64,000 nt of DNA from Cyanophyceae cyanobacterium (GTDB lineage: Bacteria > Cyanobacteriota > Cyanobacteriia > Cyanobacteriales > JBHJGN01), in NCBI GenBank assembly GCA_050331735.1, contig JBHJGN010000044.1:1-64000 (forward strand), read 5' to 3'. The notes below the pieces were generated by a model. That model was not told the DNA's origin, did not search any database, and saw only the letters and a list, made by a program, of their open reading frames with translations. The position numbers were made by a program, and so were the translations under genes. This document shows positions 329-41,757 of the stretch, in pieces. Within the stretch, counting starts at the first letter, position 1. Every line of letters starts with the position of its first letter.

Positions 329-359
329 AAAAGCGAGCGCCGCAGAGCGGTGCTCGCTT
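329..359. terminator. GC-rich hairpin, probable (bidirectional) intrinsic terminator; terminator of leader-element copy 1
   Basis: AAGCGAGCGCCGC-AGA-GCGGTGCTCGCTT inverted repeat; UUUU on the minus strand; lies between convergent units. Confidence 0.65.
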
Positions 360-431
360 GCTGCCTCTCCATCGTGTTTTGATATTTAATGTCATTGCCC
401 TGCGGAAAATTACTTATGAGAAGCAATAATC

Positions 432-501
432 GATGAACGCACCTGTACCCCCATTTCATGGCTGCTTAAGTGCACTCTTGGTGTCTTCTTTAAGCCGCAG
501 C
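432..501 (-). ncRNA. Conserved structured leader/sRNA element, copy 1
   Basis: Minus RNA GCUGCGGCUUAAAG-AAGACACCAAGAGUGCA-CUUAAGCAGC; core 471-487 identical to copy 3; box GUGCGUUCAUC at 432-442. Confidence 0.7.
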
Positions 502-708
502 AATTTGGATTCTTTATTTATGCAAAAAGCTGTATTTTATATAATATTACCATAGATATTTGAGATTTTTACAGAAAAATTAGTCATTTGGGAGGAAATT
601 CTCAATCCTGTCGATGTTAAACGCATCTTTGCTTGACATGCTGATATTTGAGACCCTGTAGGTATAGCAACTTTCCTCAAACGCGACTTGATGATTGTAT
701 TAGTTTCT

Positions 709-1575
709 CTAAAGAGCGAGAACTTGATGTTTGATACAGCCGTTCAAACGCCCTACCCGCCAGCCTAACTTCCAGATCCAGTTGGCACGCTTTCCTTTAC
801 CTAGAAAAATTTTGGGAAAGCTCAAGAGCAACTTTAACCAGGCTTTAATCATGGTCTTTTTTGACGGTTGATTCATTCCGAATGTCCGATACTTCTTGTA
901 GAGAAGAACGTTGTACTCTCCCCACAAACGAGCTTGCCGATAGAGACCTGCTACAGTATGGCGAAAACGATACTGAATTACTGCCTCGGGAACAAAATGG
1001 AGCTTTGTTCCCGCTAGCTGAATCCGCCAGCAATAGTCGGTATCTTGAAGACGAAATAGGGATTCATCAAACCCGCCAACAGCTTCATGGATTGAGCGCT
1101 TTACGCCCAAGTTACAGCCAGCGGCATGTTCTAAAAACGGAGGCTCTCGGTATTTTTGCAAACCGTGTTGCTGAGGGCAAGCATGAGACTGAATTACCCA
1201 AGGCTGATTCAGTTTTTTAAATTCAAGCCGCCCAGCAACAAAATCATACTGTGATAGAGCTTCTCCCATTGCTGCTATCCATCCAGGGGCCACTTCGTCG
1301 TCATCATCACAAAAGGCGATCGCATCTCCCCGAGCGGCTAGTACTCCCCTGTTGCGAGCATAACCTCCCCCGCGTCGGCTTGATGAATCGATGACGCGCA
1401 GATTAGGCAGCCGCTGTTGGTACTGCTCAACAATCAACAGCGTTTCATCCGTTGATCCGTTATCAGAGATAATAATTTCCCACGGTTCGCACCAATGCTG
1501 ATTAGCAAGAGCCTCCAATTGAGTCGCAATTGTTTCAGCAGCATTATAACAGGGAATAATTACGCTAATCTTCAT
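709..1575 (-). CDS. Glycosyltransferase family 2
   Basis: MKISVIIPCYN..., DNGSTD, FCDDDD DXD motif; start taken at MKISV (1575). Confidence 0.9.
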   Translation of the reverse strand: MKISVIIPCYNAAETIATQLEALANQHWCEPWEIIISDNGSTDETLLIVEQYQQRLPNLRVIDSSSRRGGGYARNRGVLAARGDAIAFCDDDDEVAPGWIAAMGEALSQYDFVAGRLEFKKLNQPWVIQSHACPQQHGLQKYREPPFLEHAAGCNLGVKRSIHEAVGGFDESLFRLQDTDYCWRIQLAGTKLHFVPEAVIQYRFRHTVAGLYRQARLWGEYNVLLYKKYRTFGMNQPSKKTMIKAWLKLLLSFPKIFLGKGKRANWIWKLGWRVGRLNGCIKHQVLAL

Positions 1576-1743
1576 GGTTTCTCGACTATAGCCACTACTT
1601 TCAGTATATTTAGAATAATATTTAGCTCCCTCATCACCAAGAAACACTGTTTCATTTTGAAGCGATTCTTGTAATAGTTGACAAAACCTGTTGCCTTAGA
1701 GAGAAGCACAGCTACTGCGAGCAACCTCATGATTGCTGCAGTT

Positions 1744-3081
1744 TTAGGTTGTTTTGAGAGTTAGCGATGAAGTGGCTTCTGGTTGCTTGATGGCGGTTCC
1801 AAAATAGGCGTTTTGTTCAGCCCGGAGCTGATCGCATAGTCTGCCGGCTGGTAACTCCACGTCATCGTAGGTCAGTACTTGGTCTTTATCGATATCTCGC
1901 TTGAGGCGGCATCCTTCTGCTAATCCCATTGGCAATAGATCCTCTGCTTGAACGACAGTTGAATTTTCGCACTGTCCATAAGTCATGTAAAAGCCGATCC
2001 CGTCTAGTACATCTCCGGCTTTAAGATTAATTTTGGCAGTGGTTACGACATCTACTTTCGGTCCGGCTAAAGGAGCCAGGACTGCATCTTGACAGAGAAC
2101 AACCCGCGCTACCGATAGAGGCACCTCAAAGTGACAGAGATGGTAGGGAGTGTAAAAACTATAGAGAGGGCCTTTTCCAAGTTTGTAGAGGTTGAGGTAG
2201 TGCTGTTGCTTCGGGTCGTCATGGGTGGCAAACACAAAAACGCCCGGTCCCGGCTTTGCTCCAACAACATAATCGACGATCCCGCCCCAATCTCGAAGCT
2301 GGGTAACGTCATAAAGTTGAGTCATTTCATCAACATGGCCTGTATGGTTGTATCCCAACATGCCTCGCTGAGCCACTCTCATATTGGTAGCATTGGCAAC
2401 AATAGCCTGCTCAAAAGAAATTTTCGTGCCATCAGCAAAGCTTGTAACCATATGGGGTTTCTGTCCCCAGCGTCTGGCAAAACCCTCCTGAGTGGTTGGA
2501 TTGCGGTAGGGATCCTGTAGGCCTTTAATGTTACCGCACAGGAGCGGAGTCAGTCCAATACTTTTGACGAAGCGGTAGAGATTCATCTGTACTCCCGGCT
2601 GGTCGCCATCACAGGCACTAAGAATCACGCCGGCGCGGTCGGCATAGACTTTCAGAATCGGACCAACGGTACCGTCGAGTTCGGCATTCATTAAGATGAC
2701 GTGCTTGCGGTGAGCGATCGCCTCTAGTACCACTCGGGCAGCATACTCAATCGTGCCCGTAACTTCAACTAGAGCATCAATGCCTGCGGCCTGAGCGAGC
2801 AAAAACGGATTTTCTGTAACAGCGTAGCTACCTTGGGCGATCGCTGTTTCTAGGTCTGACACTGACTCAACAATCTGCACATCACTCAAACCTGCTTCCG
2901 CATAGGCTCGTTGAGCGCCTTCAACACTGCGGTTAGCAATTGCCACTAATTCCATTCCTGGTACAGAGTTGACGATCTGGTTAGTGATTCCTCGTCCCAT
3001 AAAGCCCGCTCCAATCATTCCCACTTTAACGGGATTACCAGCTTCTGCACGAGTTTGTAAAGCTCGGTCGACAATAATCAT
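1744..3081 (-). CDS. NAD(P)-dependent oxidoreductase (homoserine dehydrogenase-like) with C-terminal SAF domain
   Basis: GMIGAGFMG Rossmann motif, DGDQPG, C-terminal LKAGDVLDGIG...LPMGLAEGCRLKRDI SAF-like segment. Confidence 0.85.
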   Translation of the reverse strand: MIIVDRALQTRAEAGNPVKVGMIGAGFMGRGITNQIVNSVPGMELVAIANRSVEGAQRAYAEAGLSDVQIVESVSDLETAIAQGSYAVTENPFLLAQAAGIDALVEVTGTIEYAARVVLEAIAHRKHVILMNAELDGTVGPILKVYADRAGVILSACDGDQPGVQMNLYRFVKSIGLTPLLCGNIKGLQDPYRNPTTQEGFARRWGQKPHMVTSFADGTKISFEQAIVANATNMRVAQRGMLGYNHTGHVDEMTQLYDVTQLRDWGGIVDYVVGAKPGPGVFVFATHDDPKQQHYLNLYKLGKGPLYSFYTPYHLCHFEVPLSVARVVLCQDAVLAPLAGPKVDVVTTAKINLKAGDVLDGIGFYMTYGQCENSTVVQAEDLLPMGLAEGCRLKRDIDKDQVLTYDDVELPAGRLCDQLRAEQNAYFGTAIKQPEATSSLTLKTT

Positions 3082-3333
3082 TGATACAGCTCCTGATTCA
3101 ATAAGTTTTAGGTTGCGTAGTAGTTAACTAGAAATTTTTTGACTGGCGTTATTAAATTTCGCTGCGATAGTTGCATCAACTGCTGAGATGCGGAGCGAGC
3201 CACAATTGCCAATGCTAACAGTCGATGAGATTAATTACTGAACCTTAGAAACACACCGTTTACCAAGGCTCAGTCTATTGCTCATCAGCTAGAGCGTTCA
3301 GGGTTCAAACAATCGTGGTAGCAGCAATGTTGG

Positions 3334-3879
3334 TTAAACTCCCAAAGGAATTCTTTCTAGCAGCGCCCAGGCTGCGTCCTTTGCTGAAATTTCGCTGACG
3401 GGGAGCGGCCAGTCAATTTCTAGCAGTGGATCGTCGTAGCGCAACCCTCTTTCGTATCCTGGAGTATAGAATTGACTGACCTGATAGACGACTTCAGCTC
3501 CGTCCGTTAGAGCTTGATAGCCGTGAGCAAACATTTCTGGAACATAGAGAGCACGTCGGTTAGCGGCGGTTAACTCTACACCAATATGCTCTAAAAACGT
3601 TGGTGAATTCGGGCGCATGTCGACAATGACATCGTAGATAGCGCCTTGCGTACAGCGAACTAATTTAGCCTCTGCTGCTGGCGCTAATTGGTAATGCATT
3701 CCCCGTAGTGTTCCTCGCTTATAGTTGAAAGACAGGTTGCATTGAGCAACGGCTGGCTTTAAACCATGAGCTTTAAACTCTTCTACACAAAAAGTACGAG
3801 CAAAAAAGCCTCTATCGTCGCCTTTCGGCTCTAGATCAATCATGAATGCACCTTTCAGTTTGGTCTCGATGAACTGCAT
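3334..3879 (-). CDS. rfbC: NDP-4-keto-6-deoxyhexose 3,5-epimerase (RmlC/RfbC family)
   Basis: DDRGFFAR, GTLRGMHYQ, KLVRCTQGAIYDVIVD, FAHGYQAL motifs. Confidence 0.92.
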   Translation of the reverse strand: MQFIETKLKGAFMIDLEPKGDDRGFFARTFCVEEFKAHGLKPAVAQCNLSFNYKRGTLRGMHYQLAPAAEAKLVRCTQGAIYDVIVDMRPNSPTFLEHIGVELTAANRRALYVPEMFAHGYQALTDGAEVVYQVSQFYTPGYERGLRYDDPLLEIDWPLPVSEISAKDAAWALLERIPLGV

Positions 3880-4016
3880 AGGAATCTCCTAAAATTTGTT
3901 GAAGTGATGCGAAATTAAATCTGGAAAATTCAAAGAGAGCAGATTGTTTGCCTTGTTACACAAGTAACGGAAACTGTCTCTAGGCAAATCGTCTGCTGAA
4001 GAGTCAAGTGAAATAT

Positions 4017-5045
4017 CTACAATTGACTCCAGAAGAAATTGCTGTCAATCTGCTGAGTACGGAGAAGATACTGTAGCTGCTTCAGGCGGGTAAATCCTCT
4101 AAACGCGAATGTCTCTTTCGACATCTCAATCTGTTGGAAAACCTTGTAGAGCTGTTGTGCCCCAAGTTGAGCATCCCAATCACATTTAAAACCAGGGAGA
4201 TAACGGTTGATTTTATCAAAAGAAACGCGATAACTGCGGTTGTCTCCATCACTGCTGCCAAAGCTAAGTTGACAACCTGGAAACGTCTGAGCAACAATTT
4301 GAGCAATTTCTTTGACCTGATAGTTATGGGCCGTGTCTCCCACATTAAAGATTTGATTGTGAATAATGTCTCGAGGGGCTTCTAAAGTACAAAGAATCGC
4401 TTTGCAGATATCTAAGGCGTGGACTAGAGGACGCCAGGGAGTTCCGTCACTGGTCATCTTAATTTCCTGGGTTGTCCAAGCAAGACCAGACAGATTGTTG
4501 AGCACAATGTCGAAGCGCATTCTCGGCGAAGCTCCGTAAGCCGTAGCGTTTCGCATAAACGTTGGCGAAAAATCATCATCTGCCAAGGGCTTTACATCCT
4601 TTTCAACCAGGGTTTTACAGATAGCATAGGCAGTCTGAGGATGGACAGCAGACTCTTCAGTTACGTAGTCTTCCGTCGCTACGCCATACACGCTACAGGA
4701 TGACATATAAACAAATCGGCGTACTCCTGCTGCCTTAGCCATCTTGGCTAAGCGGACTGAGCCTTGATGATTAATTTCATAGGTGATATGGGGAGCTAGC
4801 TGACCAGCAGGATCGTTAGATAGTTCCGCCATATGCACAACGGCCTCTACTCCCTGAAGGTCTTCAGGAGTAATGTGCCGCAGATCCTTGTTTAGGGTTT
4901 TTGGAGTCAGTTCGGTGGCATTATAGAGCCATCCGGCTTTGTAGTAGCCAGTGTCTACTCCAATAATTTCGTGACCGTGCTGCATAAGCAGGGGAGCCAG
5001 TAAAGAGCCAAGGTACCCTTCGGTTCCGGTAACAAGTACTTTCAT
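4017..5045 (-). CDS. NAD-dependent epimerase/dehydratase (extended SDR)
   Basis: VTGTEGYLG, SSCSVYG, YAICK catalytic motif. Confidence 0.9.
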   Translation of the reverse strand: MKVLVTGTEGYLGSLLAPLLMQHGHEIIGVDTGYYKAGWLYNATELTPKTLNKDLRHITPEDLQGVEAVVHMAELSNDPAGQLAPHITYEINHQGSVRLAKMAKAAGVRRFVYMSSCSVYGVATEDYVTEESAVHPQTAYAICKTLVEKDVKPLADDDFSPTFMRNATAYGASPRMRFDIVLNNLSGLAWTTQEIKMTSDGTPWRPLVHALDICKAILCTLEAPRDIIHNQIFNVGDTAHNYQVKEIAQIVAQTFPGCQLSFGSSDGDNRSYRVSFDKINRYLPGFKCDWDAQLGAQQLYKVFQQIEMSKETFAFRGFTRLKQLQYLLRTQQIDSNFFWSQL

Positions 5046-6265
5046 CGGTTTTGATGTACGCTGAGTGATGGTTGTAAGTTTGTCAGGGGAGGAATCTGCT
5101 CGACAACTGCTTTACCAATCTCAAGAGAAGACGTGGCGGCAGGAGACGGGGCATTGCATATATGCAGTGAGTTGTGTCCTTGAACAATCAAGAAATCGTC
5201 CACAAGTTTGCCGTTCGGCTTTAAGGCTTGAGCGCGAACTCCAGCCGGACTCGGCACTAAATCGTCTGCCTGAACCTCGGGGATCAGTTTCTGGAGGCTA
5301 CGGACAAATGCCGCTTTGCTGAAGGACCGGACAATTTCTTGGAAGCCTTCATCGGCATGTTTGGCGGCTAGCTTCCAAAAACCAGGATAGGAAATTGCTT
5401 CGGTAAAATCGCGGAGGTTAAAGTCTGTCTTTTTGTAGCCTTCACGCTTGAGGCTGAGAACGGCATTGGGTCCGGCGTGTACGTTGCCGTCGATCATCCG
5501 GGTAAAATGAACGCCAAGGAAGGGAAAGTCTGGATTGGGAACCGGGTAGATGAGAGTTTTGACCAAGTAGCGTTTGTCTGGCCTCAGTTCATAGTACTCT
5601 CCTCGGAAAGGAATGATCTTGGCAGGAGGCTGTACTTGTCCTCGTTTAGCGAGGCGATCGCTAAACAGTCCGGCACAGTTGATAATATAACGAGCTGGAA
5701 ACGACCCGTTTGTCGTTTCTAAGACTTGTTCTTTGCCGACAGCAATATGATTGACTTTGGTATTGAGATAAATCTCGCCGCCCTGAAGTCGGATGAGGTC
5801 GGCATACTTAAGGCAAACCTGTTTATAGTCAGCGATGCCCGTTGAAGGAACCAAGATGCCTGCTAAACAGCTAACATAAGGCTCAACTTCTCTAACCTCC
5901 TCCGCCGTAATTTTCTTAATCTGGAGACCGTTTTCTAAACCGCGCCGGTAAAGTTTATCTAGCTGCGGCAGTTCCTTTTCCTGAGTGGCAACAATTACCT
6001 TGCCACAGACTTCGTGAGCAATTCCGTGTTCCTGACAGAACTTGACAATCGATTGACTGCCCGCTTGGCAGAATCTTGCTTTGAAACTGCCAGGCTTATA
6101 ATAGATACCGGAGTGAATGACACCGCTGTTGTGACCCGTCTGATGAAAAGCTAAGGAACTCTCCTTTTCCAAGACAACGATACGGGCGTGAGGATACCGT
6201 TGACCTAATGCCATGCCCGTAGATAGGCCAACGATGCCTCCGCCGATAATGGCAAAGTCATACAT
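5042..6265 (-). CDS. lhgO: L-2-hydroxyglutarate oxidase-like FAD oxidoreductase
   Basis: IIGGGIVG, HQTGHNSGVIHSGIYY, FPFLGVHFT, NAPSPAATSSL. Confidence 0.9.
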   Translation of the reverse strand: MYDFAIIGGGIVGLSTGMALGQRYPHARIVVLEKESSLAFHQTGHNSGVIHSGIYYKPGSFKARFCQAGSQSIVKFCQEHGIAHEVCGKVIVATQEKELPQLDKLYRRGLENGLQIKKITAEEVREVEPYVSCLAGILVPSTGIADYKQVCLKYADLIRLQGGEIYLNTKVNHIAVGKEQVLETTNGSFPARYIINCAGLFSDRLAKRGQVQPPAKIIPFRGEYYELRPDKRYLVKTLIYPVPNPDFPFLGVHFTRMIDGNVHAGPNAVLSLKREGYKKTDFNLRDFTEAISYPGFWKLAAKHADEGFQEIVRSFSKAAFVRSLQKLIPEVQADDLVPSPAGVRAQALKPNGKLVDDFLIVQGHNSLHICNAPSPAATSSLEIGKAVVEQIPPLTNLQPSLSVHQNR

Positions 6266-6291
6266 AAATGTTCTGAACCCTTGAAACAGCT

Positions 6292-6320
6292 AAAAGCAAG
6301 CCTGCGCTAACAAGCTTGCT
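6292..6320 (-). terminator. Intrinsic terminator/attenuator in the leader of lhgO
   Basis: Minus RNA AGCAAGCUUG-UUAGCG-CAGGCUUGCU-UUU, 10-bp stem plus U run, ending ~27 nt before the lhgO start. Confidence 0.65.
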
Positions 6321-6368
6321 GAACCTAAGTGTTGAAAAGCAACTTCGAAAGAAGGCCTTTCGCTAGTA

Positions 6369-6437
6369 GACAAATACATTTAACCCTTTTGAAGAACCGC
6401 TAAAGCGCACTCACCGGTGTCTTCTTTAGCCATTCTT
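6369..6437 (-). ncRNA. Conserved structured leader element, copy 2
   Basis: AAGAAUGGCUAAAG-AAGACACCGGUGAGUGCG-CUUUAGCGGUUCUU; box AUGUAUUUGUC at 6369-6379. Confidence 0.75.
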
Positions 6438-6506
6438 GAAAATTACCTACTGCTTTAAGAGGTAATGGAAAGACTCTGGTTATTCTTTTTTTGCAGCTTT
6501 ATGCAT

Positions 6507-6512
6507 AGTATA
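6507..6512 (-). promoter_or_regulatory. Putative -10 element (TATACT) driving leader copy 2
   Basis: TATACT ~70 nt upstream of the stem; the same hexamer precedes copy 3. Confidence 0.45.
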
Positions 6513-6700
6513 CACGAATATCTAGTTAACGATTGACTTTTTTTATTACAAAATCTTAAGTTTGCTGACGAGCGGTAAAAAGCTTCCAAGACATCAGGAC
6601 TCTCAGAAAGAGTTTTTATTCAGCTACACAGAGCTTCTCGATTATATCTGCTTCTCATCATGATTGACCCCGAGCAATCAGTCTTCTGCCGTACAGAGAA

Positions 6701-7993
6701 TTAGGTTTTATATCTTGCCTGCATCCGGTGAGCAGCAATATCGCTTTTCAACCAATCATAAAGATTATTGAGCTTTTGGCAGAAAGACGTGTAGGTATAC
6801 TGCTGTTGAACAAGCCGTTTTCCTGCTGTACCCAACTTTAGCCTGAGAGAATGGTGATGAACGAGAGTGAGAATCGCTTCGGCAAAGTCTTCAGGGGTGG
6901 GATGAGCTAGCATAGCGACGCGCTCGCTGAGGACTTGAGTATGAGTCGATAGCGCCGTCGCAACGACAGGTTTTCCGCTGTCGAGGTAAGAGTAAATTTT
7001 CATAGGCGTATTCTTTCCCTTGATTCTGGGAGACACGAGAATATCAGCCTGGGCTAGATAAGCACCCAGTTCTCTGGCTGGTTTAGCGCCGAGGAAATGA
7101 ACGCTCCTGTGGATTCCTAATCTACGGGCTTGTTGGTGATAGTGTTGAATATCTGTCTGTTCTCCCCCCACAATCGCTAGATTAACGGGAGCCTGAGGCA
7201 AAACGAGAGCCAGACTTGCCAATAGCAGATCGATTCCCTGATAGCTTTCTAAGTTGCCAACGTACATTAATAGTAAACTGTTGATGCCAAGCTGGTGCTT
7301 GAGATCTTCGCCGATGCTTGCTGACGTTTGTTTCAGCAGCGAAACGTCGGGCAAAATCGCGACTTTTCGAGGTCGATACATGGCAATATCGTCGGCCAGG
7401 GCTTTACAAACTGGAATCACGCATTTGGCATTCCTGATGGCGATTTTCTCAAAGAAGTTAAACACAGGTTGAAGCCAACCTAAGCGAGGATATTTCTCCG
7501 TCATTTGTTGAGCGAGAGAAGAATCCATGTCGTAAACGTACTCAATCTTAAAAATGGCTTTGAGGAGCAAAGCCATAAATACCGATTCCTCAACGGCATG
7601 AACTAAGTCGTACCGCTTAGTCAGCATCAGCCTCAGCGCTTGCATAAATAGCAAAACGTCGTAGACAATTTTTTTCCAGGAGAACCCTGGTCTAACGTTT
7701 TGTACAAACGGAACTTTAATCGTTCTATATAGGGAAACTTGCTGATAGTTTCTGTTGGTTCCTTCATAGTAGGTGACAACATCAACCTGGTCTCCTCGCG
7801 CAGACAAAGCTTGAAGGATGAGATCGTCTGCTATTGGTGAACCCCGATCCTGATAGAAAGGATGAGGAATCAGAAAAAGTATTTTTAATTTTTCTTCAGT
7901 TAAAGCGAGAGGGGAATACCGCTCAATTAGAGTGCGACGAGGTTTTGCTTTTAGTGGAGGTAGCATAGGCAATACAGTTGACCAAATAGCCAA
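6701..7993 (-). CDS. Glycosyltransferase family 4
   Basis: YVGNLESYQG, ADILVSPR...PMKIYSYLDSGKPVVA GT-B C-terminal motif; true start may be downstream (MLPP...). Confidence 0.88.
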   Translation of the reverse strand: MAIWSTVLPMLPPLKAKPRRTLIERYSPLALTEEKLKILFLIPHPFYQDRGSPIADDLILQALSARGDQVDVVTYYEGTNRNYQQVSLYRTIKVPFVQNVRPGFSWKKIVYDVLLFMQALRLMLTKRYDLVHAVEESVFMALLLKAIFKIEYVYDMDSSLAQQMTEKYPRLGWLQPVFNFFEKIAIRNAKCVIPVCKALADDIAMYRPRKVAILPDVSLLKQTSASIGEDLKHQLGINSLLLMYVGNLESYQGIDLLLASLALVLPQAPVNLAIVGGEQTDIQHYHQQARRLGIHRSVHFLGAKPARELGAYLAQADILVSPRIKGKNTPMKIYSYLDSGKPVVATALSTHTQVLSERVAMLAHPTPEDFAEAILTLVHHHSLRLKLGTAGKRLVQQQYTYTSFCQKLNNLYDWLKSDIAAHRMQARYKT

Positions 7994-8017
7994 CGGGAAA
8001 GAGTTTACACATGCAGA

Positions 8018-8049
8018 AAGTCCCGCTAGAGGAGTCTCTAGCGGGACTT
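8018..8049 (-). terminator. Perfect 14-bp hairpin inside the operon (terminator-like)
   Basis: AAGTCCCGCTAGAG-GAGT-CTCTAGCGGGACTT; minus strand ends ...GGGACUUUCU. Confidence 0.6.
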
Positions 8050-8083
8050 CAAGTAAATCTGTTTAGTTCAAATATGGAGCAGC

Positions 8084-9589: not shown

Positions 9590-9718
9590 AGCAGTGAGGA
9601 ATTAAAGACGGCAGCCGATGGTAGCTGTTAGCTGCTCGATGAGTGAGAACCCTAGATCTAGACAAGAGCCAATCGCTTTCTTGAAGCTAATAGCTTTCTT
9701 AAAATGAACAGCTTCTGA

Positions 9719-10765: not shown

Positions 10766-10806
10766 GATGATCTATCCTCTAGAAATAGGGTTGGAATTGG
10801 AAATAG

Positions 10807-11880: not shown

Positions 11881-11924
11881 TGGGAACTCCTGATAACAGT
11901 TGCAATAATAGTTCTGATAACGCT

Positions 11925-13331: not shown

Positions 13332-13378
13332 AGAGTAAATCGATAAGTTGCTTGGCAGAGCTGAGCAGGGGTAATTAG

Positions 13379-15237: not shown

Positions 15238-15254
15238 GTAGTGTGTTATTTGTG

Positions 15255-16034: not shown

Positions 16035-16043
16035 TAAAAGCGA

Positions 16044-16850: not shown

Positions 16851-16984
16851 TCTGCTTATTAGTAATATATAAAACTTAAAAACCGCAACAAGTAAGGTCA
16901 GAGAAAAAAAGGGCTTTTCAAGCCAGAATGGCTATGCTTGAAGATAACAAGCAACTTTAGCGCTCAGCCGAGATTGCTTGGCTA

Positions 16985-17500: not shown

Positions 17501-17504
17501 AATT

Positions 17505-22992: not shown

Positions 22993-23010
22993 GTATCAAT
23001 ATAGATATGA

Positions 23011-25512: not shown

Positions 25513-25841
25513 CCTGAATCGTCCCGCTTTAATTTGCAAGCTTTTTGCTGAATCTTTGAAAAAAAAAACACCGGTTTAAACATAGAAAACACAGGAGGAA
25601 ACACGCTTATCTAGAACTTAAGACTGGTGGCAGCTCTAACGCTGTTTGCCAAAGTCAATTAACAAGGCACTACAAGGAGCTGCTAGGGGTTGCCAATGTT
25701 ACTGTGAAAACGTAAAAAAGCATTCCTAGGTCTCTGTGTTTTCTCCTATTATTCTTATGATTGCTAATTTCTACTGCTTATTGACGACTGACAGATGCTT
25801 AAAGCATTATTTGCCAATCGGAGTTAGCTTATGTTAAGCAG

Positions 25842-26762: not shown

Positions 26763-26823
26763 AGTCGTAGAGCACTCATGGATAGTGCTGTTAAAAGAGT
26801 TTTTTGTCTCAAGATTTTACTGA

Positions 26824-27867: not shown

Positions 27868-27967
27868 TACTAAATTAGTATTTTTGAGATTGTTTAGACT
27901 TAATTACTTGATTTGATCGCATTTATGCAATCAAGCTGTGTTGATGGTCCTACCGAATAAAGCAACA

Positions 27968-28885: not shown

Positions 28886-28927
28886 ACGATGTATCAGCCT
28901 GTAATCAATTGAAAAATGAATACGACA

Positions 28928-30370: not shown

Positions 30371-30397
30371 AGATCAATGCAGAGTGGTTGTGAGTAA

Positions 30398-34115: not shown

Positions 34116-34132
34116 CGGTTGATTCCAAACTT

Positions 34133-36196
34133 TTAGGCTTCTGCTTCGAGGACTTCTTTGTGACCGTAGCGGTAGCCTTCAGTACGGGACTCAACGCCAT
34201 TAACTATTAGTCCTTTAACCTGAGCGCTATGACGCTGGAGCTGATCGAGGCTATCAATTACCGAGTAGCGATCGCTGGTTCCCGGTCGAACTACAAACAG
34301 GACGTTCTGCGCCGCTGCACTCATTAGAGGTGTTTCGCTCACTAGGCTGACTGGAGCGCTGTCTACCAACACATAGTCATAGCGTCCGGTTTGCTGAGCT
34401 GTGCTGAGTCGCTGATTGAATTTCTCGCGGGTAAATTCACAAATTCTGTCAGTCGGCATGATGAGCGCCGGCATCAAGTCTAAACCTGGGTAGACAGACA
34501 CCAAAGAAGTATTATCTTCTGGGTCTATTTTGGTATATCCTAAACGTCGGCTCATTTCTGCCTGCCTGAAATCGCCATCGACCACCAAAACGCGAAATCC
34601 GAGTTTGGCTAGAGCGATCGCAACTCCCAAGGTTACCGTTGTTTTTCCTTCACTAAAGGTGGCGCTTGTCACCATCAGGCGACGGTTTTCAAGCTGAAGA
34701 AAGCTTAAAGCGGAGGCCAGACGCTGAAACTCGGTTTCTGCCTCTGCATCTAGCTCCCAACGAAGATGGGGCTGTTTGAGTCGAGAAACTCGTCCTAGTA
34801 CTGGAAATTCTACCTGCTGCAGGTCTTTAGGACTGAGCAACGGCTTGCGAGATTCTAGGAAGAACAGGATGCTCATGCTGCCAAACGCGGCAGCGAGAAT
34901 CCCGCCAAGAATCACTAGCTTGCGATTTGGTTCAGTCGGTTCAGGATCCAAGGTAGGTCCATCGACAAGCTGAACATTTGGATAACTATCGAAGGTGTTG
35001 ATCTTCGACTGACTAACCTGCGCCGTAATTCCTTTGTAGATTCCTTCGGCAATGTCGTACTTGCGCTGTAGCTCTGTCAGTTGAGCTTTGTTTTTAGACA
35101 CAAAAGCTAGTTCAGACGATAGTTGCTCGACCCGATTTTGAATTTGGCTAGCTTGTTGCTGTAGACCTTGAGCCGTAATCTGAGTTCTGATTAAATCCGT
35201 GATCATGCCAATGCGGCTATCGGCACCGCTCCCGCCTAGGGTGGCGTCTACGCTGGTGACTGCCACTCCTGGAATCGCCTTGGCTACCTGCTGATTGAGC
35301 TGCTCTTGTAGCTCTTGACGCTCTAGCGACAGCGACTGAATCTTAGGATTTTCGTTAGTATACCGGCTACGAGCCTCTGCCAGAGCAATTTCTGTTTGTG
35401 ATAGTTGCTCTCGAACAGCTTGGTACTCGACATTTTCTGCGAGTCGCAGAGAATTCATTGCCTGCTGAGGAGTGATTTGGAGAAAGGCAGCAGCCATTTT
35501 AGCTTCTGTTTCATTGGCTTGAGCATCTGCTAAGATTTGGGCATGCCGAGTTTTAAGTTCATTAATCGACTCAATCAGCTCGCCAGTTTGGACATCAACA
35601 TTGACCAAGCCAGTTGACCGCTGAAACTCGTTTAATTGATTCTGAGCCTGCAGTAGGTTTTGATGAGATTGTTCGAGCTCTCCTTGAGCGAACTGCTCGC
35701 GAACACTAGCATCTTGCTGACGAAGTTCGTTCAAACGCTGCTGATAAGCATCGACCAGATTATTCAGGCGCTCGATAGCAAGTTCCGGACTAGAGCCTTC
35801 AGCGGAGAGGGAAATCATGGTGGTTTGCTCTTGAGGTTCTGCCGAAAATAAGCCGCGATAGCTGGATAATTTTGAATAATCTTCGTTTTCGGGGTCCACT
35901 TCTAAAACGCGTTCTAGGACACTATCGCTCGTAATAATTTCTGACTGGACAACCAGAGGATTAACCGCATTGGAGAAACCAATACTGCTATCTCTAATAC
36001 TTCCTAATGTCCCTAGATCGGCATTGAGATTACCTTCTTTCGCTGGCAGATTAAGCTGTGCCTCAGCTTCCCATACTGGCGGAGAAGATTTTTCTGCATA
36101 GACAGTAGCGGCATAAGCTGTAGCAGCTAAAACAACACAATTCAGTCCTAATAAAGGTTTCCAGTGTCTGCGAACAACAGAAAATGTATGATTCAT
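34133..36196 (-). CDS. wzc: Wzc/GumC polysaccharide co-polymerase with BY-kinase domain
   Basis: N-terminal TM, long coiled-coil, second TM, SATFSEGKTT Walker A, VVDGDFR, YVLVDSAP. Confidence 0.88.
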   Translation of the reverse strand: MNHTFSVVRRHWKPLLGLNCVVLAATAYAATVYAEKSSPPVWEAEAQLNLPAKEGNLNADLGTLGSIRDSSIGFSNAVNPLVVQSEIITSDSVLERVLEVDPENEDYSKLSSYRGLFSAEPQEQTTMISLSAEGSSPELAIERLNNLVDAYQQRLNELRQQDASVREQFAQGELEQSHQNLLQAQNQLNEFQRSTGLVNVDVQTGELIESINELKTRHAQILADAQANETEAKMAAAFLQITPQQAMNSLRLAENVEYQAVREQLSQTEIALAEARSRYTNENPKIQSLSLERQELQEQLNQQVAKAIPGVAVTSVDATLGGSGADSRIGMITDLIRTQITAQGLQQQASQIQNRVEQLSSELAFVSKNKAQLTELQRKYDIAEGIYKGITAQVSQSKINTFDSYPNVQLVDGPTLDPEPTEPNRKLVILGGILAAAFGSMSILFFLESRKPLLSPKDLQQVEFPVLGRVSRLKQPHLRWELDAEAETEFQRLASALSFLQLENRRLMVTSATFSEGKTTVTLGVAIALAKLGFRVLVVDGDFRQAEMSRRLGYTKIDPEDNTSLVSVYPGLDLMPALIMPTDRICEFTREKFNQRLSTAQQTGRYDYVLVDSAPVSLVSETPLMSAAAQNVLFVVRPGTSDRYSVIDSLDQLQRHSAQVKGLIVNGVESRTEGYRYGHKEVLEAEA

Positions 36197-36357
36197 AATA
36201 TTTAGCTATATCTTACTGACGATTAAGGTTTTAACGCTGTTGACCGATCATGCATCCTTGCAAACGGGTGCTGACCAAAATTGTCGGTGGCTTAGAGAGC
36301 TAATATTTCTAGCAAGAGAAAATCATCAACTCGGCAGCGGCTCATTTGTTCGACTAC

Positions 36358-37401
36358 TTACCTCTGAGGTAGAGTAGAAGGAAGTTTACTAATTTTTGTG
36401 AGCTTTAAGCGCAAGTAACCGCGAAGCCCTAAACGCAGAACCGCTTTTCCTTGAGCCGGAAACAGAGCGCAAATACCACGCCGTAGGAACCTTTCCAGCG
36501 TATTTTGCGGGCTATAGCCAATAGCAATACTTTCTTGTAGGGAAAGCCAAAGAATCCGCCACGCTTCAATCCAGGATGACTGTCCTTGCTGAAGAACGGA
36601 AAGACTACGATAATCAACATCCCGACGCAAATCAAATTGCTGATTCAGCCCAGCTTTCAAAGCCGCTTGGTTAATGTAGGCAGCGGTTACTTCACGCTGA
36701 TGAAGGAGATACTTAAGATCGTCGTTGCGAGCCTGCAAATTATTGCCGTGCATGCGGTAGAACATCAACGGTTCATCAATGCAGCCAACCTCCCCGTAGA
36801 AAGGAACAGTAGCAGCCAGATAAGTATCTGCGGCTTCTGAGCGCTGAGTTGGAATTGGCAATACTTTTTGAAGGGTTTGCCGGCGGTAGGCGAGTCCAGA
36901 AGTAATCGACCAGGCATACTTGCCCCACTGCAATAGCAGAGGACGAACGTCTCCTCGACTGTGGGCGAGATATCCCTGACCAATCGGCTTTCCTTCTCGA
37001 TTGACCGAGATTCTACCGTGGGAAATTTGTACCCATTGAGGATGTTCTTGAAAAGCCGCCACGACTTTAGCTAGTTTGTCTTTTCGAAAATAATCATCAG
37101 CATCCAAAAAACAAACAATTTCCCCGGATGAACGAGCAATGCCTAAATTAAATGCCGCTCCCTGGCCAGCGTTTGCTTGAAAAATAGCCGTCATCTTTCC
37201 GCGATAGGATTCAAGGATCTCTCGAGAGCGGTCGGTTGAACCATCATCGACGACTAACAGCTCAAAATTTTGATAAGTTTGTTGTAATACACTTTCAATC
37301 GCTTGTGATAAAAAACAACCATAGTTGTAATTAGCAATAACAACGCTGACGAAGGGATGCTCTTTGCTAGGAGAAGTGGTTTTCGATTGAAGCATTGTCA
37401 T
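36358..37401 (-). CDS. Glycosyltransferase family 2
   Basis: VSVVIANYNYG, VDDGSTD, FLDADD, YRMHGNN. Confidence 0.9.
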   Translation of the reverse strand: MTMLQSKTTSPSKEHPFVSVVIANYNYGCFLSQAIESVLQQTYQNFELLVVDDGSTDRSREILESYRGKMTAIFQANAGQGAAFNLGIARSSGEIVCFLDADDYFRKDKLAKVVAAFQEHPQWVQISHGRISVNREGKPIGQGYLAHSRGDVRPLLLQWGKYAWSITSGLAYRRQTLQKVLPIPTQRSEAADTYLAATVPFYGEVGCIDEPLMFYRMHGNNLQARNDDLKYLLHQREVTAAYINQAALKAGLNQQFDLRRDVDYRSLSVLQQGQSSWIEAWRILWLSLQESIAIGYSPQNTLERFLRRGICALFPAQGKAVLRLGLRGYLRLKLTKISKLPSTLPQR

Positions 37402-37529
37402 GACTGTCCCTCTAGAGCTTCTGACAAAAGTAATAACTGAGTCAAACTGTTTCTAATTGATGTAGTTTAGCGAGAAGATAGGAGCTCGCGGCTAGTCACA
37501 GTTATACAATCCTTGATGTTCGGACAACG

Positions 37530-37560
37530 AAAAAAACGAAGCTTTGTAAAAAGCTTCGCT
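37530..37560 (-). terminator. Strong intrinsic terminator/attenuator upstream of the main EPS operon
   Basis: Minus RNA GCGAAGCUUU-UUAC-AAAGCUUCG followed by U7. Confidence 0.8.
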
Positions 37561-37637
37561 TAGCCTACTATTGCACTTGCCCTATTTTTAACTAGCAAGG
37601 ATAACTAGAAAGCAATCGAGATGATAGAAACAGAAGA

Positions 37638-37704
37638 GTGAAATACATCCTTAATCTAAAACTGCTCAAGTGCACTCTTGGTGTCTTCTTAAACAAGCTT
37701 TCAG
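37638..37704 (-). ncRNA. Conserved structured leader element, copy 3
   Basis: UUGUUUAAG-AAGACACCAAGAGUGCA-CUUGAGCAG; box AUGUAUUUCAC at 37638-37648. Confidence 0.75.
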
Positions 37705-37771
37705 CAAATAGGCTGCTGCAACTCGGGGAATTTAGCCAGCTAGATTAAAGTTTTCTTGTTGTCTTTTCTGA

Positions 37772-37780
37772 AGTATAACA
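37772..37780 (-). promoter_or_regulatory. Putative extended -10 promoter (TGtTATACT)
   Basis: TGnTATACT ~70 nt upstream of the copy 3 stem. Confidence 0.5.
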
Positions 37781-37914
37781 TAACTTCTGAAATTTTTTGC
37801 AGGTTCTACAAAGAAAATTTCTATTTGCCTTAAACCAAACACTTTCTAGCGCAGCAGGAAGAAGCAGAAAAACGAATTTACCGGAATCCAGAGCAATTAC
37901 TGGACAATAGGTTA

Positions 37915-38613
37915 CTAAAAGGCGTTATGCTTACTAAGAAGTGTGAAGATTGTCTCTACAATTAAACTGATGTCGTAGAGCAAAGACCATTTTTCTTGAT
38001 AAGCTAAATCGAGCTGGATTACTTCATCAAAATCTTGAATGCGCGAGCGACCTTTAACTTGCCATTCGCCCGTCAAACCGGGTTTAACGTAGAGTCTTTG
38101 CCAGTGAGAAGGACAATATTGCTGAACTTCGTCAGGCGTTGGCGGTCGAGTTCCAACTAAGCTCATATCACCACACAGAACATTCCAAAACTGAGGAAAC
38201 TCGTCGAGACTAGTACGACGCAACCAGCGTCCTACTTTGGTTGTGCGTGGATCTTGTTTATTTTTGAACAGTGGACCACGGATTTGATTTTCAACTAGAT
38301 GCTTCATCTGTTCGGCATTAACAACCATTGAGCGGAATTTCCAAATTTTGAACGGTTTACCGTATAGACCAACGCGAGTTTGTCTAAAAAAGATTGGCCC
38401 CGGATTATCAATAAATATTAAAAACGAAACAGGAATTAACAGGATTAGCAAAGCCGTTAACCCCACCAAGGCACCACAAATATCAATAATTCTTTTCGCT
38501 CTACTACGGACAGAAGGATGGGTGGAAGTCAGGCTATTAAAAGCACTAGCCGTTCCGGTGGTGTACCGAATCATAATTTTATGAGGAGCAGGCATACTGT
38601 TTTCAGCAACCAA
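37915..38613 (-). CDS. Priming sugar transferase (Bac_transf, WcaJ/CpsE-like)
   Basis: KRIIDI, FKIWKFRSM, DPRTTKVG..LRRTSLDEFPQFWNVL, KPGLTG.WQV. Confidence 0.93.
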   Translation of the reverse strand: MVAENSMPAPHKIMIRYTTGTASAFNSLTSTHPSVRSRAKRIIDICGALVGLTALLILLIPVSFLIFIDNPGPIFFRQTRVGLYGKPFKIWKFRSMVVNAEQMKHLVENQIRGPLFKNKQDPRTTKVGRWLRRTSLDEFPQFWNVLCGDMSLVGTRPPTPDEVQQYCPSHWQRLYVKPGLTGEWQVKGRSRIQDFDEVIQLDLAYQEKWSLLYDISLIVETIFTLLSKHNAF

Positions 38614-38724
38614 AAAAAGTAATGATTAAAAACCGAGTCGTTAGTTTATATTCAAGAATGAAAAATTGCGACCAATCAGTGTTGAGCGGTCGAGCTAGCT
38701 TAAGCATTAGTAAACTGACAGTTT

Positions 38725-39627
38725 CTAAATCGATTGATAAATAACGTAGGTATTATGAAACCATTCAAAGAAAAGATTAAAATCGTAGTCGATTTGCATT
38801 AAATCTAGCCCAACGTCGTGGTCATAACAGCAGGCAATTACTTCGTCTAAAAAGATTTTGGTGGCATGCAGACAGGCGTGGGAGGTATCTCGAATTAGCT
38901 TTAAGTGATTCGCGTAGGAAAAGTGAGTAGTCGAAGACTCTAAATAAAATAGATGTAAATCGAGCAAGCTTGCTGGCTGCACTGCTAGCGTAATTTTTCT
39001 TGAAGAATCTAGTAGAGCTTTAATCCCAACGGTTTCTGCACGTTCAGTTAGAGCTGAACCATCAAAAATCTCCATACTGATACAGCCATCAGCATAGCCT
39101 TCTGTCATTTTACAAGTATCAGTAAACTCCCTAAGCTGCTGCTGCGCTCGCTCAATAAACCGTTGCAACTTTGCTTTGAGAGACTGTAATTTAGCATCTT
39201 TAGGTGACTGTAAGAGCTTTTCCTCAAGTAAAGCATAGAGACAATAAGCCTGCTTGAGTGAGGTCGCTATATAGGGACACAGTGAAGACTCGTCGATTTC
39301 TTCTGCCAAGAACGCCAACATTACAACGGCTTCGCAGAGCTGCTCACTCAAAAACTGAATGGTTTTTAGGTCTTTACTGTGAAGCTCTAGCAACAGGAAT
39401 GAACGATAGCTACGGCTGAGCTTAAGAAACAGTCCTAATGTTATTCGATTGTAAACAGCAGTTAAGAAGGCTTCACCGTTGATGAGCTTGTCTTCAATCT
39501 CTTGAAGATACTCGGCTAGGATTTCGCTGCCGCGGAAGAATTTTTGCTCCAGAGAATCTTTGGTTTCTCCACCAGCATCGACTAAAGGTAATTTTAGGCT
39601 CATAGTCAAATGGCTTTTTGTATTCAT
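38725..39627 (-). CDS. Hypothetical all-helical protein (possibly DUF5677-like)
   Basis: Long ORF; start uncertain (39774/39627/39603); no clear catalytic motif. Confidence 0.6.
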   Translation of the reverse strand: MNTKSHLTMSLKLPLVDAGGETKDSLEQKFFRGSEILAEYLQEIEDKLINGEAFLTAVYNRITLGLFLKLSRSYRSFLLLELHSKDLKTIQFLSEQLCEAVVMLAFLAEEIDESSLCPYIATSLKQAYCLYALLEEKLLQSPKDAKLQSLKAKLQRFIERAQQQLREFTDTCKMTEGYADGCISMEIFDGSALTERAETVGIKALLDSSRKITLAVQPASLLDLHLFYLESSTTHFSYANHLKLIRDTSHACLHATKIFLDEVIACCYDHDVGLDLMQIDYDFNLFFEWFHNTYVIYQSI

Positions 39628-40012
39628 TAGCCAATATCTTATTGCTACGCTAGCAAAAATCAGAACTTGATTTACTAGGATGTTTATTGGGCATTGGACA
39701 AAACAGCAAAGCGGCAACAGATATGCAAAAACCCCAACCAGCTGAAAGCGCTGTAGTGCAGCCAGAGCAAACATCCATCATCGTTAGAATCAGGTAGCTA
39801 CAGGCGGCAAGAACAGCGCTATCTTGTTTTGTCTCAGCGAATGAAACTCTATTCTGAGACCTTTGCTCGGTTGTCCATTTTTTTCTGGAGCTTTTTTGTT
39901 GCTCCACACAAAATCGAGATGAGAAATGCAGTTTCGCATCAGGCAATGCCGTCAGCGTTGATACCTGGTAGGGCTGCCGGTGCCAAGACAGGATAGAAAA
40001 TTATTGAACTGG

Positions 40013-40405
40013 TTAGGAAAGCCTAGCGCCACGACTCATACGATAGCTATACTCGCTAACCGAGGGATTTGGTCGGTCTGGGCTTACGTTGTTTGCCTGT
40101 TTCCAATGCCTGCTGTTGGCCAGAGTCGAATTTAAAGTGCCATCCTCTTGACGAGAAAGCAATAGCCATATCTTGCCGTGTTCACCACAGAAAAACTCTT
40201 CGATCCATTTACTCCGGTCTGTATACGTACCCTGACTCGCTATTAATTTAGCCTTTTTACTAGTGACTTGGCACATTTCCTGGATGGCAGCACTGTCTGT
40301 ATAGCACAAATGATGCCTTGGTCCATTGACTCTCCAGAGTCTTTCTTGGCAGTAGGGGCAAAAAAACTTTTGTGTTTTTTTTCTGCGGCTTCTTTTGTTT
40401 GGCAC
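40013..40405 (-). CDS. Small basic Cys/His (zinc-finger-like) protein with Arg/Lys-rich N-terminus
   Basis: MPNKRSRRKK-...CPYC...FFCGEHG; AAGGAG RBS ~10 nt before GTG start. Confidence 0.8.
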   Translation of the reverse strand: MPNKRSRRKKTQKFFCPYCQERLWRVNGPRHHLCYTDSAAIQEMCQVTSKKAKLIASQGTYTDRSKWIEEFFCGEHGKIWLLLSRQEDGTLNSTLANSRHWKQANNVSPDRPNPSVSEYSYRMSRGARLS

Positions 40406-41363
40406 AGCGTCTTGCTCCTTTAGGAAATAAAAATTCAGTTAACAAACCTTGTCTATTCGTAATACGACTGTCAGGATGCTTTCTGCATTCTTTGGTCGTA
40501 CAAACTTGACCAGAACACTGGAACAGGGAACTTTATAAAAAATTAAGTATTGCTCTCCATCGAGCGCCCCCAGAATAGGCAAAAAAATAAGATTTTTTGA
40601 GCATCTTCTATTGATGCATTTAAAACAAAAGCTTTAAAGAGTATTCGATTCTGACGTTGCTAAATCTGATACAACTGAGGACTTATTTGCTCAATACAAA
40701 ACATATCATAGGTAAACTTAAAACAAACACCAAATTTGAGTAAGTTTTGTAAAAATTTTGGTAAAAATTGTTATTGAGCCTGAAATCTCCTACAGGAAGG
40801 GAGATTAAGAGTAGAGCGAATAAGAGAATTAGCATCAAAAACTGAGGCCTCTTTACAAGAACTTTAAAAAAGTGGCGTTTTTTTAAGGGTAAGTAAACCA
40901 AATAAAAACTACCAGACTTAACTAATGTAATTCAAAATATGAAACATAGAAACAATGCCTACTTATAATGAAAGCAAAACAGAAAATGCATCTAAATGAT
41001 GCATTTTAAAAAATGGCAACGTCTTTGCTTATTGCGTTCAATACACTGCTCCTTTTGAAGATTATTGCTCAAGAGTTACTCTCCTGAGCAATAGCTTTGT
41101 CGGTTCAAAGACTCAGCGCTAGTTCTCTGTTACTCTAAGTACGCAGAAATAGAAATAGCACCAAGCTCTCGCGCATAAAGCTATTTTGCTTTATCGCACC
41201 AAAGAAGAGAGTAAAGTAACCGCAGAGCTAAATTGCTGGAGTAGCAATGGCTTGCTCCTAGCAAGCAGCCCGAAATTACTTTAGTAATAATTGCTTATTA
41301 CTTGATTGCAACACTCGAATGGACTGGTTTTAAACATCAAGGTGGCGCAGTATTACGAACTAG

Positions 41364-41392
41364 AAAACCGACTAGTACGAATACTAGTCGGT
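41364..41392 (-). terminator. Intrinsic terminator with UUCG loop in the long leader
   Basis: Minus RNA ACCGACUAGUA-UUCG-UACUAGUCGGU-UUUCU, perfect 11-bp stem. Confidence 0.75.
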
Positions 41393-41486
41393 AGCGAGAC
41401 AATCTCAACGCCTTTGCAGATAATTACGTAATGTGTTCAGAGCAACTTCGCTGAGGTATATTAGCCTGACTATCTAGCAGACCACT

Positions 41487-41554
41487 GACAAATACATTGC
41501 CTTCATTCCAGAAACTAGCAAATGCACTCATGGATGTCTTTTTGCCTAGTTTTC
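41487..41554 (-). ncRNA. Conserved structured leader element, copy 4
   Basis: GGAAACUAGGCAAA-AAGACAUCCAUGAGUGCA-UUUGCUAGUUUCUGG; box AUGUAUUUGUC at 41487-41497. Confidence 0.75.
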
Positions 41555-41728
41555 CAGTGGAAGTCCACTGCTGACCTTCTTCAGGCGCTGCTTTCCCTAC
41601 AACATTGAGCTTCCTTGCCTATTGCTAAAGCCTTAAACTCTCCTCAAAATTGGAGTTTTATATCTCAGCTTTTTTAGCAGATACCAAAGGAAGTATGTGT
41701 AAAGCTTTTATTGTTGCTACTTATAAAA

Positions 41729-41757
41729 GATATAGCGGAATGTTTTCTTTCTGTCAA
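41729..41757 (-). promoter_or_regulatory. Putative sigma70-type promoter
   Basis: TTGACA-N17-TATATC on the minus strand upstream of copy 4 (-10 imperfect). Confidence 0.45.

Follow-up and report, generated by a model that had tools for sequence, protein, structure and literature searches.

We analysed the first 64 kb of contig JBHJGN010000044.1 (contig C44) of a Cyanophyceae cyanobacterium, whose 5.57-Mb genome is distributed over 99 contigs; this whole stretch of 64,000 nucleotides is called the window hereafter. On its minus strand lies a polysaccharide gene cluster with four copies of a structured leader RNA, and the gene of a small, basic, zinc-ribbon-like protein stands behind the copy that opens the cluster. 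RNA and protein are probably the two halves of a new system that controls the genes of polysaccharide production. The leader RNA, of about 100 nt, would represent an undescribed cis-acting family, separate from those of Rfam 15.

An earlier note, made from the letters of the window, had placed four minus-strand copies of an AAGACAY-(5-6 nt)-GUGC core in it, and all four were recovered, with cores at 472-487, 6407-6423, 37672-37687 and 41524-41540. Two 17-nt core patterns gave two matches each, against 0.04 and 0.08 expected. A whole-genome scan revealed a fifth full copy on another contig (G000:C29:40007-40087(+), G000 being this genome), ahead of a GDSL/SGNH hydrolase gene, and a covariance model named R1 was built from these five copies. 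In each copy, a short hairpin (P0) is followed by a longer stem (P1) that encloses the core, and further downstream by a 3' box and a terminator-like hairpin. The elements of the four window copies are, with positions, strand and description:

461..532, minus strand, copy 1: P0 532-529/501-498, P1 497-488/470-461, core 487-471; R1 68.9 bits
438..452, minus strand, 3' box of copy 1 (GGGGG...GGUGCG), weakly conserved
329..357, minus strand, intrinsic-terminator-like hairpin and U-run of copy 1, free energy (dG) -17.8
6392..6466, minus strand, copy 2: P0 6466-6442, P1 6440-6424/6405-6392, core 6423-6406; R1 75 bits
6369..6388, minus strand, 3' box of copy 2 (AAGGG...AUGUAUUUGUC)
6292..6320, minus strand, terminator-like hairpin (9 bp) and UUUU of copy 2, read by eye, below the U-run thresholds of the terminator searches
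37662..37718, minus strand, copy 3: P0 37718-37702, P1 37696-37688/37670-37662, core 37687-37671; R1 76.9 bits
37638..37652, minus strand, 3' box of copy 3 (AAGG AUGUAUUUCAC)
37531..37561, minus strand, intrinsic-terminator-like hairpin and U7 of copy 3
41511..41570, minus strand, copy 4: P0 41570-41555, P1 41554-41541/41522-41511, core 41540-41523; R1 73 bits
41487..41503, minus strand, 3' box of copy 4 (AAGG..AUGUAUUUGUC)
41360..41392, minus strand, intrinsic-terminator-like hairpin and U-run of copy 4

Copy 4 opens the cluster and precedes the small-protein gene; copy 3 heads a run of about 27 same-strand genes that begins GT2-Wzc-Wzy-GT1-GT1-Wzx-sulfotransferase. Copy 2 heads a sugar-modification gene set, its terminator-like hairpin standing 27 nt before the start of a FAD-oxidoreductase gene (5042-6265; Pfam). 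After copy 1 there is only its terminator and then the end of the contig (base 1). Several other traits claimed in the earlier note were also found: outer stems that differ in sequence yet pair in each copy (9-13 bp with bulges), and an intrinsic-terminator-like hairpin with a U-run downstream of all four copies (two terminator searches, with 6320-6292 identified by reading). Two of its claims survived in part. A second box is present 20-30 nt after the stem (GGG/AAGG, then a AUGUAUUUGUC-like stretch) and is only partly conserved in other genomes; hexamers resembling a -10 box (TATAAA/TATACT) are visible upstream, but their fixed position is not established, since a histogram of TANNNT distances for 47 copies has no sharp peak.

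A degenerate sixth core occurs at G000:C6:97319-97348(-), equivalent to L248:3020-3049, where GAGUAC replaces GAGUGC and the R1 score drops to 27.2 bits. It is flanked by a Ser/Thr kinase-pentapeptide gene and a HAD hydrolase gene, outside polysaccharide loci.

The fold was assessed on an unfitted MAFFT alignment of 49 distinct copies from about 35 genomes. RNAalifold predicts from it P0 (a 4-bp hairpin directly 5' of P1), P1 and a short inner stem, with compensatory changes in 13 of 17 pairs. The proportion of paired cells is 89.3%, compared with 20.6-49.3% when partners are slid, and the covariation score of 0.458 exceeds the slid controls (at most 0.177) and is reached by none of 500 shuffles. 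A model-aligned set of 64 distinct copies gives the same picture. Among paired cells, G-U combinations number 70 and A-C combinations 12, and the pairing therefore belongs to the sense-strand RNA. The conserved and covarying fold that the earlier note had read from four copies is thus borne out by the larger alignment and its slid and shuffled controls: it is a real, sense-strand structured RNA.

P0 abuts the 9-13 bp P1, which holds a near-invariant asymmetric internal loop and a 3-bp capped hairpin. The core consensus, 5'-AG-AAGACACC-N2-5-GAGUGCA-CU, is itself near invariant; by column, the 64 copies read A-G, then A-A-G-A-C-A-C-C, a variable loop of 2-5 nt, G-A-G-U-G-C/A-A and finally C-U. 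A G...C pair that was proposed within the loop is not conserved (8 of 64 copies have A), and the position makes better sense as belonging to a non-canonical internal loop. We propose to define the family by a P1 stem enclosing AAGAC-R-Y-C ... GAG-Y-G-M-R, the four window copies scoring 68.9-76.9 bits with R1. This model has 67 matches at E<=0.01 in the loci examined, and leaves unmatched the chance pattern loci L208-L210 and L026.

On the 3' side of P1, a purine box (AUAGGGA-like) precedes a GUGUCUU-like box, often with U-rich sequence after it. GUGUCUU complements the AAGACAC of the core in some copies, over at least 6 nt in 19 of 67 against 9 of 67 with a reversed query; the overall excess is slight (mean 4.72 versus 4.49 nt), and the 3' box may form a pseudoknot or otherwise pair with the core in a subset of copies. 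Local hairpins (P2) occur in many copies and, in lineage f2, covary (AGGCA/UGCCU versus AGACA/UGUCU) and come with U-runs; RNAalifold recovered no common P2 hairpin from the 49 copies. A leader peptide was also considered and rejected: AUG or GUG in the 3' box opens short open reading frames (ORFs) whose frames and peptides differ between copies.

As to its novelty, none of the 4227 models of Rfam 15 matched in the 64-kb window at the gathering threshold, a check that the earlier note had proposed. A permissive search of positions 300-620 gave noise only (E 1.4 or worse), and five loci from other genomes gave no match at E 5 or better. The models for EAR/epsC (RF01735) and for the c-di-GMP classes are part of that library and remained silent, in line with the earlier note, which had not recognised the element as either; the models for JUMPstart (RF01707) and wcaG (RF01761), also in the library, had no match. 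A literature search on cyanobacterial extracellular polysaccharide (EPS) RNA motifs, antitermination, gll0452 and the motif strings, with supplements outside its scope, found nothing relevant. A paper on the synechan gene cluster mentions unnamed small proteins in that cluster (PMC8205485), and its Supplementary file 1 might be relevant to homologues of classes A and B, the two groups of small proteins described below.

The distribution of the RNA was surveyed in 401 genomes of the same order with a strict sequence pattern, the backwards pattern serving as control. The strict pattern gave 58 matches in 34 genomes, against 8 for the control; three of the 58 are chance matches that lie inside ORFs and fail R1. 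The remaining 55 copies come from 31 genomes, which often have 2-4 each. R1 also finds matches in other families of the order. A 17-19 nt pattern searched across prokaryotes returned at least 120 loci; among the matches listed, about 110 core matches in other phyla lack the enclosing stem while the cyanobacterial ones carry it, a result that we use as a negative control and not as a census. Carriers of the motif include Hyella patelloides LEGE 07179. Nine loci found outside the order by a phylum-wide pattern were dismissed as chance, because none of them passes R1. One weak R1 match comes from another class (G135, E 0.009). A further copy, with the full motif, a 12-bp stem and 49 bits with R1, sits on a contig filed under a 'Candidatus Gracilibacteria' metagenome-assembled genome (L136, JAAUUT010000036.1), which may be a cyanobacterial contig binned wrongly.

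Gene context was determined by a Pfam scan of 6-9 kb downstream of the motif at 33 non-redundant loci, after exclusion of the redundant loci L173-L176 and the chance loci L208-L210. Polysaccharide genes or the small protein are found downstream at 27 of the 33 (raw count); three of the remaining loci have unrelated genes (DAHP synthase, PadR, FG-GAP) and three are too short. The downstream sets include GT2-Wzc-Wzy, WecG/TagA-type transferases, GT1-GT1-Wzc-priming transferase, Bac_transf, and NTP-transferase/epimerase/UDP-glucose dehydrogenase, and in other orders too the motif precedes genes for Wza, Bac_transf, NTP-transferase and Wzc. The link with polysaccharide operons drawn in the earlier note is thus found again in other cyanobacteria, with the motif ahead of glycosyltransferase, Wzc, Wza and sugar-nucleotide genes. 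All but one of 47 copies lie between genes; the ORF that follows is on the same strand in 41 of the 47 and is often 200-870 nt away. From this layout, the RNA would be made at the 5' end of polysaccharide transcription units. Tandem copies were seen at two places: in G455:C115 (L187), four copies are arrayed within about 1.9 kb before one small-protein gene, and in G167:C82 (L191) four copies, two of them 219 nt apart, lie among Uma2/DUF29 genes.

The candidate trans-acting partner is encoded behind copy 4:

40013..40405, minus strand, gene of a 130-aa basic protein with a CPxC...CxxH signature ('class A')

An ORF of 129-138 aa outside Pfam and NCBIfam families recurs beside the motif in other genomes. 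In the family alignment, the CPxC motif is invariant, as is a third Cys, mostly followed by His; the isoelectric point (pI) is 9.2-10.1, with 4-7 Lys/Arg among the first 20 residues, and the C-terminal tail is strongly conserved though of low confidence in the AlphaFold model (pLDDT 76 for the protein). All database relatives are cyanobacterial 'hypothetical proteins', including an entry from Gloeobacter violaceus, and those in the ESM Atlas are unnamed cyanobacterial clusters only. The NrdR zinc ribbon aligns with the model at a VIA Z of 3.6. Two truncated paralogues of the small protein, covering roughly residues 1-90 without the C-terminal tail, are encoded elsewhere in this genome (G000:C19:147664-147927(-) and G000:C54:3865-4128(+)); they have no motif within 3 kb, and their neighbours are MFS/ShlB and histidine kinase/transposase genes.

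Class A proteins (E<1e-30) and the RNA largely share their hosts. Thirty of the 31 genomes with a validated motif encode a class A protein, and in the exception the motif lies at base 10 of a contig. Conversely, 47 of the 401 genomes of the order have class A, 17 of them without a strict-pattern match; for the 15 of these examined with R1, a variant motif (GAGUGA for GAGUGC) was found within 2.5 kb of the gene in nine, so that the motif is detected in 39 of 47 class A genomes (30 by pattern and 9 by R1). The arrangement of the two partners differs between lineages. In lineage f18 and in the present genome, the motif lies 300-1100 nt upstream of the class A gene and a second one precedes GT2-Wzc-Wzy; in lineage f2 the motif begins about 100 nt after the end of the class A gene; in other orders the two are divergent. 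In these other orders, a motif was found at 7 of 19 class A loci (6 of 12 genomes), where it precedes Wza, Bac_transf, NTP-transferase or a protein-Wzc pair. Because the neighbourhood is kept through such rearrangements, it argues for a functional tie between protein and RNA, as judged from genome comparison.

Weaker matches to the class A profile form a paralogous clade, 'class B', of 140-165 aa. It is frequent in other families of the order, and its relatives are all unnamed. Its genes reside in polysaccharide loci with GT1, ABC-2/Wzt transporters, APS kinase, GDP-mannose dehydratase, Wzy/Wzx and Wza. R1 has no match at class B loci. A distinct conserved hairpin is found instead at 12 of 13 of them, usually 60-130 nt before the class B gene, and its layout is akin to that of the class A RNA: an outer stem (GGAG..GGGCU/AGUCCCUCC), an asymmetric loop, a 4-bp inner stem (GGUC/GAUC) and a loop of 3-5 nt, with a conserved CCUUC 3' of the hairpin. 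Examples are:

L232:2901-2997, L233:2918-3014, L234:3390-3486(-) and L241:2890-2985, class B hairpins, with 8 more loci in alignment A6

This hairpin has no Rfam match. It has 90.4% of its cells paired, versus 30-63% for slid partners, and its covariation is weak in a set of 12 very similar sequences. As two protein clades each have an RNA of their own, protein-RNA recognition fits better than a metabolite-sensing RNA, and the class A and class B pairs point to matched protein-RNA specificities. At L239:2622-2715(-), upstream of Wza and divergent from a class B gene, there is a long hairpin resembling P1; it has a 38-nt insert and carries an AUAGG...U-rich tail, and may be a third variant.

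Terminator-like sites accompany the RNA more often than its opposite strand. All five full copies of the present genome have a G+C-rich hairpin with a U-run 90-190 nt downstream, and over the whole set, 27 of 67 copies have such a site in the next 350 nt, the opposite strand giving 8 of 67. Cyanobacteria are not known to possess Rho.

The earlier note had proposed either a protein-binding leader or a riboswitch. The first option is now favoured over the second, because the RNA occurs together with a specific small protein whose gene lies beside it, and the class B pair goes the same way. In the mechanism that we propose, the zinc-ribbon-like basic protein of 130-140 aa (window 40013-40405) would bind the P1 hairpin loop on the nascent transcript; once bound, it would let RNA polymerase read through the intrinsic terminator or terminators further down the leader; and this read-through would switch on the protein's own gene and the long biosynthetic operons together. 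We infer both steps, binding and read-through, and place their combination somewhat below an even chance. We are more doubtful of a wider formulation, a two-part cyanobacterial antitermination system in which a small zinc-ribbon-like basic protein would recognise a k-turn-like hairpin of the nascent leader and render RNA polymerase resistant to terminators, dating from before the Gloeobacter-type split and with at least two matched specificity classes, A and B, serving Wzx/Wzy-Wzc and ABC-transporter pathways, respectively, in a phylum without known Rho and a genome without NusG paralogs; it is tentative and would be the less likely of the two to hold.

A number of observations weigh against protein-dependent read-through. 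A search for sequencing runs covering positions 36000-42000 of the window returned DNA metagenome runs only. What suggests nucleic-acid binding by class A is its charge and its cysteines, and no solved fold matches it (Foldseek against the PDB, best E 0.75; VIA, best Z 4.8). In six class A genomes the motif was not found within 2.5 kb of the gene, nor was it found at 13 of the 19 class A loci from other orders; moreover, the genomes are related, so that co-occurrence counts overstate independence. A recognisable terminator within 350 nt is missing in 40 of 67 copies. Inside the long operon, terminator-like sites are at chance level (25 versus 19.8, standard deviation (sd) 3.8, and 21 versus 16.7, sd 3.7, in shuffled sequence), and a special need for processive antitermination is therefore not visible. 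Finally, the tandem arrays described above (four copies ahead of a single gene in G455, a spacing of 219 nt between two copies in G167) look like independent small RNA genes.

Several of these points would be accommodated if the protein bound the leader with another output, such as protection of the mRNA 5' end, translational control, autoregulation, or the production of terminated decoy RNAs of about 200 nt that titrate the protein. The linkage between protein and RNA fits this explanation equally well; the element seems, by eye, to be at the very 5' end of the transcript; copy 1 is followed by nothing other than its terminator; and the tandem arrays and the 40 copies without a terminator are on its side, as are the CCUUC conserved after the class B hairpin and the AGGAGG-type ribosome sites downstream. 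Direct translational control is nevertheless unlikely, because the next start codon is often 200-870 nt away, too far from the motif; the over-representation of terminator-like sites after the motif (27 versus 8 of 67) also speaks against these other outputs. We regard these other outputs as rather unlikely when taken together, yet as the most serious competitor of read-through. A riboswitch, whose P1 internal loop, perhaps with a pseudoknot involving the 3' box, would bind an NDP-sugar, a precursor or a second messenger and set the terminator, is improbable. The compact conserved core in a covarying stem, the 5' leader position, the terminators downstream and the copies with at least 6 nt of 3' box/core complementarity are all what one would look for in such an element, but the mean pseudoknot complementarity is weak, and the downstream genes (GT2, WecG, GT1, Wza, priming transferases, sugar-nucleotide enzymes) share a process and not a substrate. 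A metabolite sensor also agrees poorly with the tight link to one small protein in three arrangements and with a paralogous protein accompanied by a different hairpin.

Even less credence is due to a role as a DNA site, where the small protein would act as a transcription factor on an operator or upstream promoter element. The protein is basic and has a zinc-ribbon-like motif, and some copies have sequences like -35 and -10 hexamers, about the right distance apart, in the 3' half of P1 and in the 3' box. The stem sequences, however, vary freely while pairing is kept, unlike DNA half-sites; the excess of G-U over A-C is strand-specific; the middle of the core differs in length by up to 3 nt between copies; and the orientation is fixed relative to the downstream genes (41 of 47). 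Lowest of all we rank an element without regulatory function, either a dispersed repeat or the remnant of a mobile element. Copies are multiple within genomes, some of those in G167 lie among Uma2/DUF29-type genes and the degenerate copy lies outside polysaccharide loci, but there are only 5 to 6 copies in 5.6 Mb, the core is kept across orders while its flanks diverge, gene context and orientation are consistent, and the roughly 110 core matches of other phyla, among the matches listed, are without the stem.

The genes that such a pair would control in the window, together with two enzymes bearing on the nature of the product, are:

709..39774, minus strand, same-strand polysaccharide cluster, the candidate controlled genes (Pfam)
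27968-28885, minus strand, sulfotransferase gene of the cluster
25842-26762, minus strand, polysaccharide lyase gene of the cluster

According to a Pfam scan of 42 cluster ORFs, every gene from about 42 kb to the contig end is on the minus strand. The cluster encodes a priming sugar transferase, GT2 and GT1 enzymes, a Wzc-type co-polymerase/kinase, Wzy and two Wzx flippases, as well as acetyl- and methyl-transferases and sugar-nucleotide enzymes; the presence of a sulfotransferase and a polysaccharide lyase inside it suggests that its EPS is a sulfated extracellular polysaccharide. An ORF of 349 aa (38725-39774, minus strand), between the small-protein gene and the priming transferase, belongs to no Pfam or NCBIfam family. 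Upstream of the cluster, a lone homologue of DndE (DNA sulphur modification; 44263-44655, minus strand) adjoins genes for a cNMP-binding histidine kinase and a response-regulator/thioredoxin-reductase fusion.

The control of extracellular polysaccharide synthesis in cyanobacteria is poorly understood, although these polymers make up sheaths, the matrix of biofilms and mats and the slime of blooms, and include sulfated polymers of biotechnological interest. The present work provides a testable handle in the form of an RNA of about 100 nt with a near-invariant 20-nt core and a 130-aa protein outside known families; the two are found together at the start of Wzc, Wzy, Wza and glycosyltransferase operons, in lineages ranging from deep-branching to crown cyanobacteria. 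Should the pair govern terminator read-through, it would bring a new family of elongation-regulator proteins and a new RNA family, and could offer a portable switch for engineering polysaccharide output. Whatever the output, both components are new entries for RNA and protein databases.

Among known systems, phage lambda N, which acts with nut (boxB) RNA sites, offers a parallel in layout: a small basic protein and a short RNA hairpin near the 5' end, upstream of terminators, with the protein's own gene behind one site and several sites per locus coordinating operons. The present protein has no sequence, family or fold similarity to N (Pfam, NCBIfam, Foldseek, VIA), and the system is chromosomal, distributed among cyanobacteria and dedicated to polysaccharide loci, with a larger RNA (P0 plus P1 with its internal loop). 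It would be a functional analogue of lambda N/nut without homology, and the resemblance is one of layout only. RfaH with ops-JUMPstart, UpxY and LoaP represent antitermination of polysaccharide or secondary-metabolite operons by NusG paralogs, and they share with our system that the 5' leader of long polysaccharide operons holds an element devoted to control; here, however, the element is a covarying RNA hairpin and not an ops-type DNA word, and it has no JUMPstart match. The whole genome encodes a single NusG-family protein (PF02357), on contig C4 and far from the cluster, and none of the 42 cluster ORFs has a NusG/KOW match; as a result, no RfaH-, LoaP- or UpxY-type factor is available, and this mechanism is excluded for the genome.

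The EAR RNA promotes terminator read-through and is not known to need a dedicated protein, whereas the present RNA is linked to one, and phylum and fold differ as well, consistent with the absence of an Rfam match. EAR/epsC (RF01735) of Bacillales is described as a structured RNA tied to exopolysaccharide operons (PMC2864571). The control proposed here, by a protein-bound leader hairpin acting on a terminator, resembles the BglG/SacY-RAT and ANTAR two-hairpin leaders. In those leaders, a protein-bound hairpin decides the fate of the downstream terminator and the bound structure overlaps it; in ours the terminators lie 90-190 nt further on without overlap, and no CAT/PRD or ANTAR domain was found. 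Autoregulatory ribosomal-protein leaders such as that of rpsF similarly combine a protein gene with an adjacent structured RNA, putatively bound by the protein in our case, but the present RNA also heads many other operons, often hundreds of nt from the start codon. At the level of structure, the asymmetric internal loop with a conserved G-A step between a long and a short stem recalls the kink-turn, which canonically has a 3-nt bulge followed by tandem sheared G-A/A-G pairs. The loop columns of the 64 copies show a 2-nt AA bulge, the 5' side having G and A and the 3' side C or A and then A; a canonical kink-turn is ruled out by the bulge of 2 nt and by the C (56 of 64) or A (8 of 64), in place of G, opposite the second A. 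A leader RNA with a dedicated protein is a known kind of system, to which cyanobacteria would contribute two components that are both new families.

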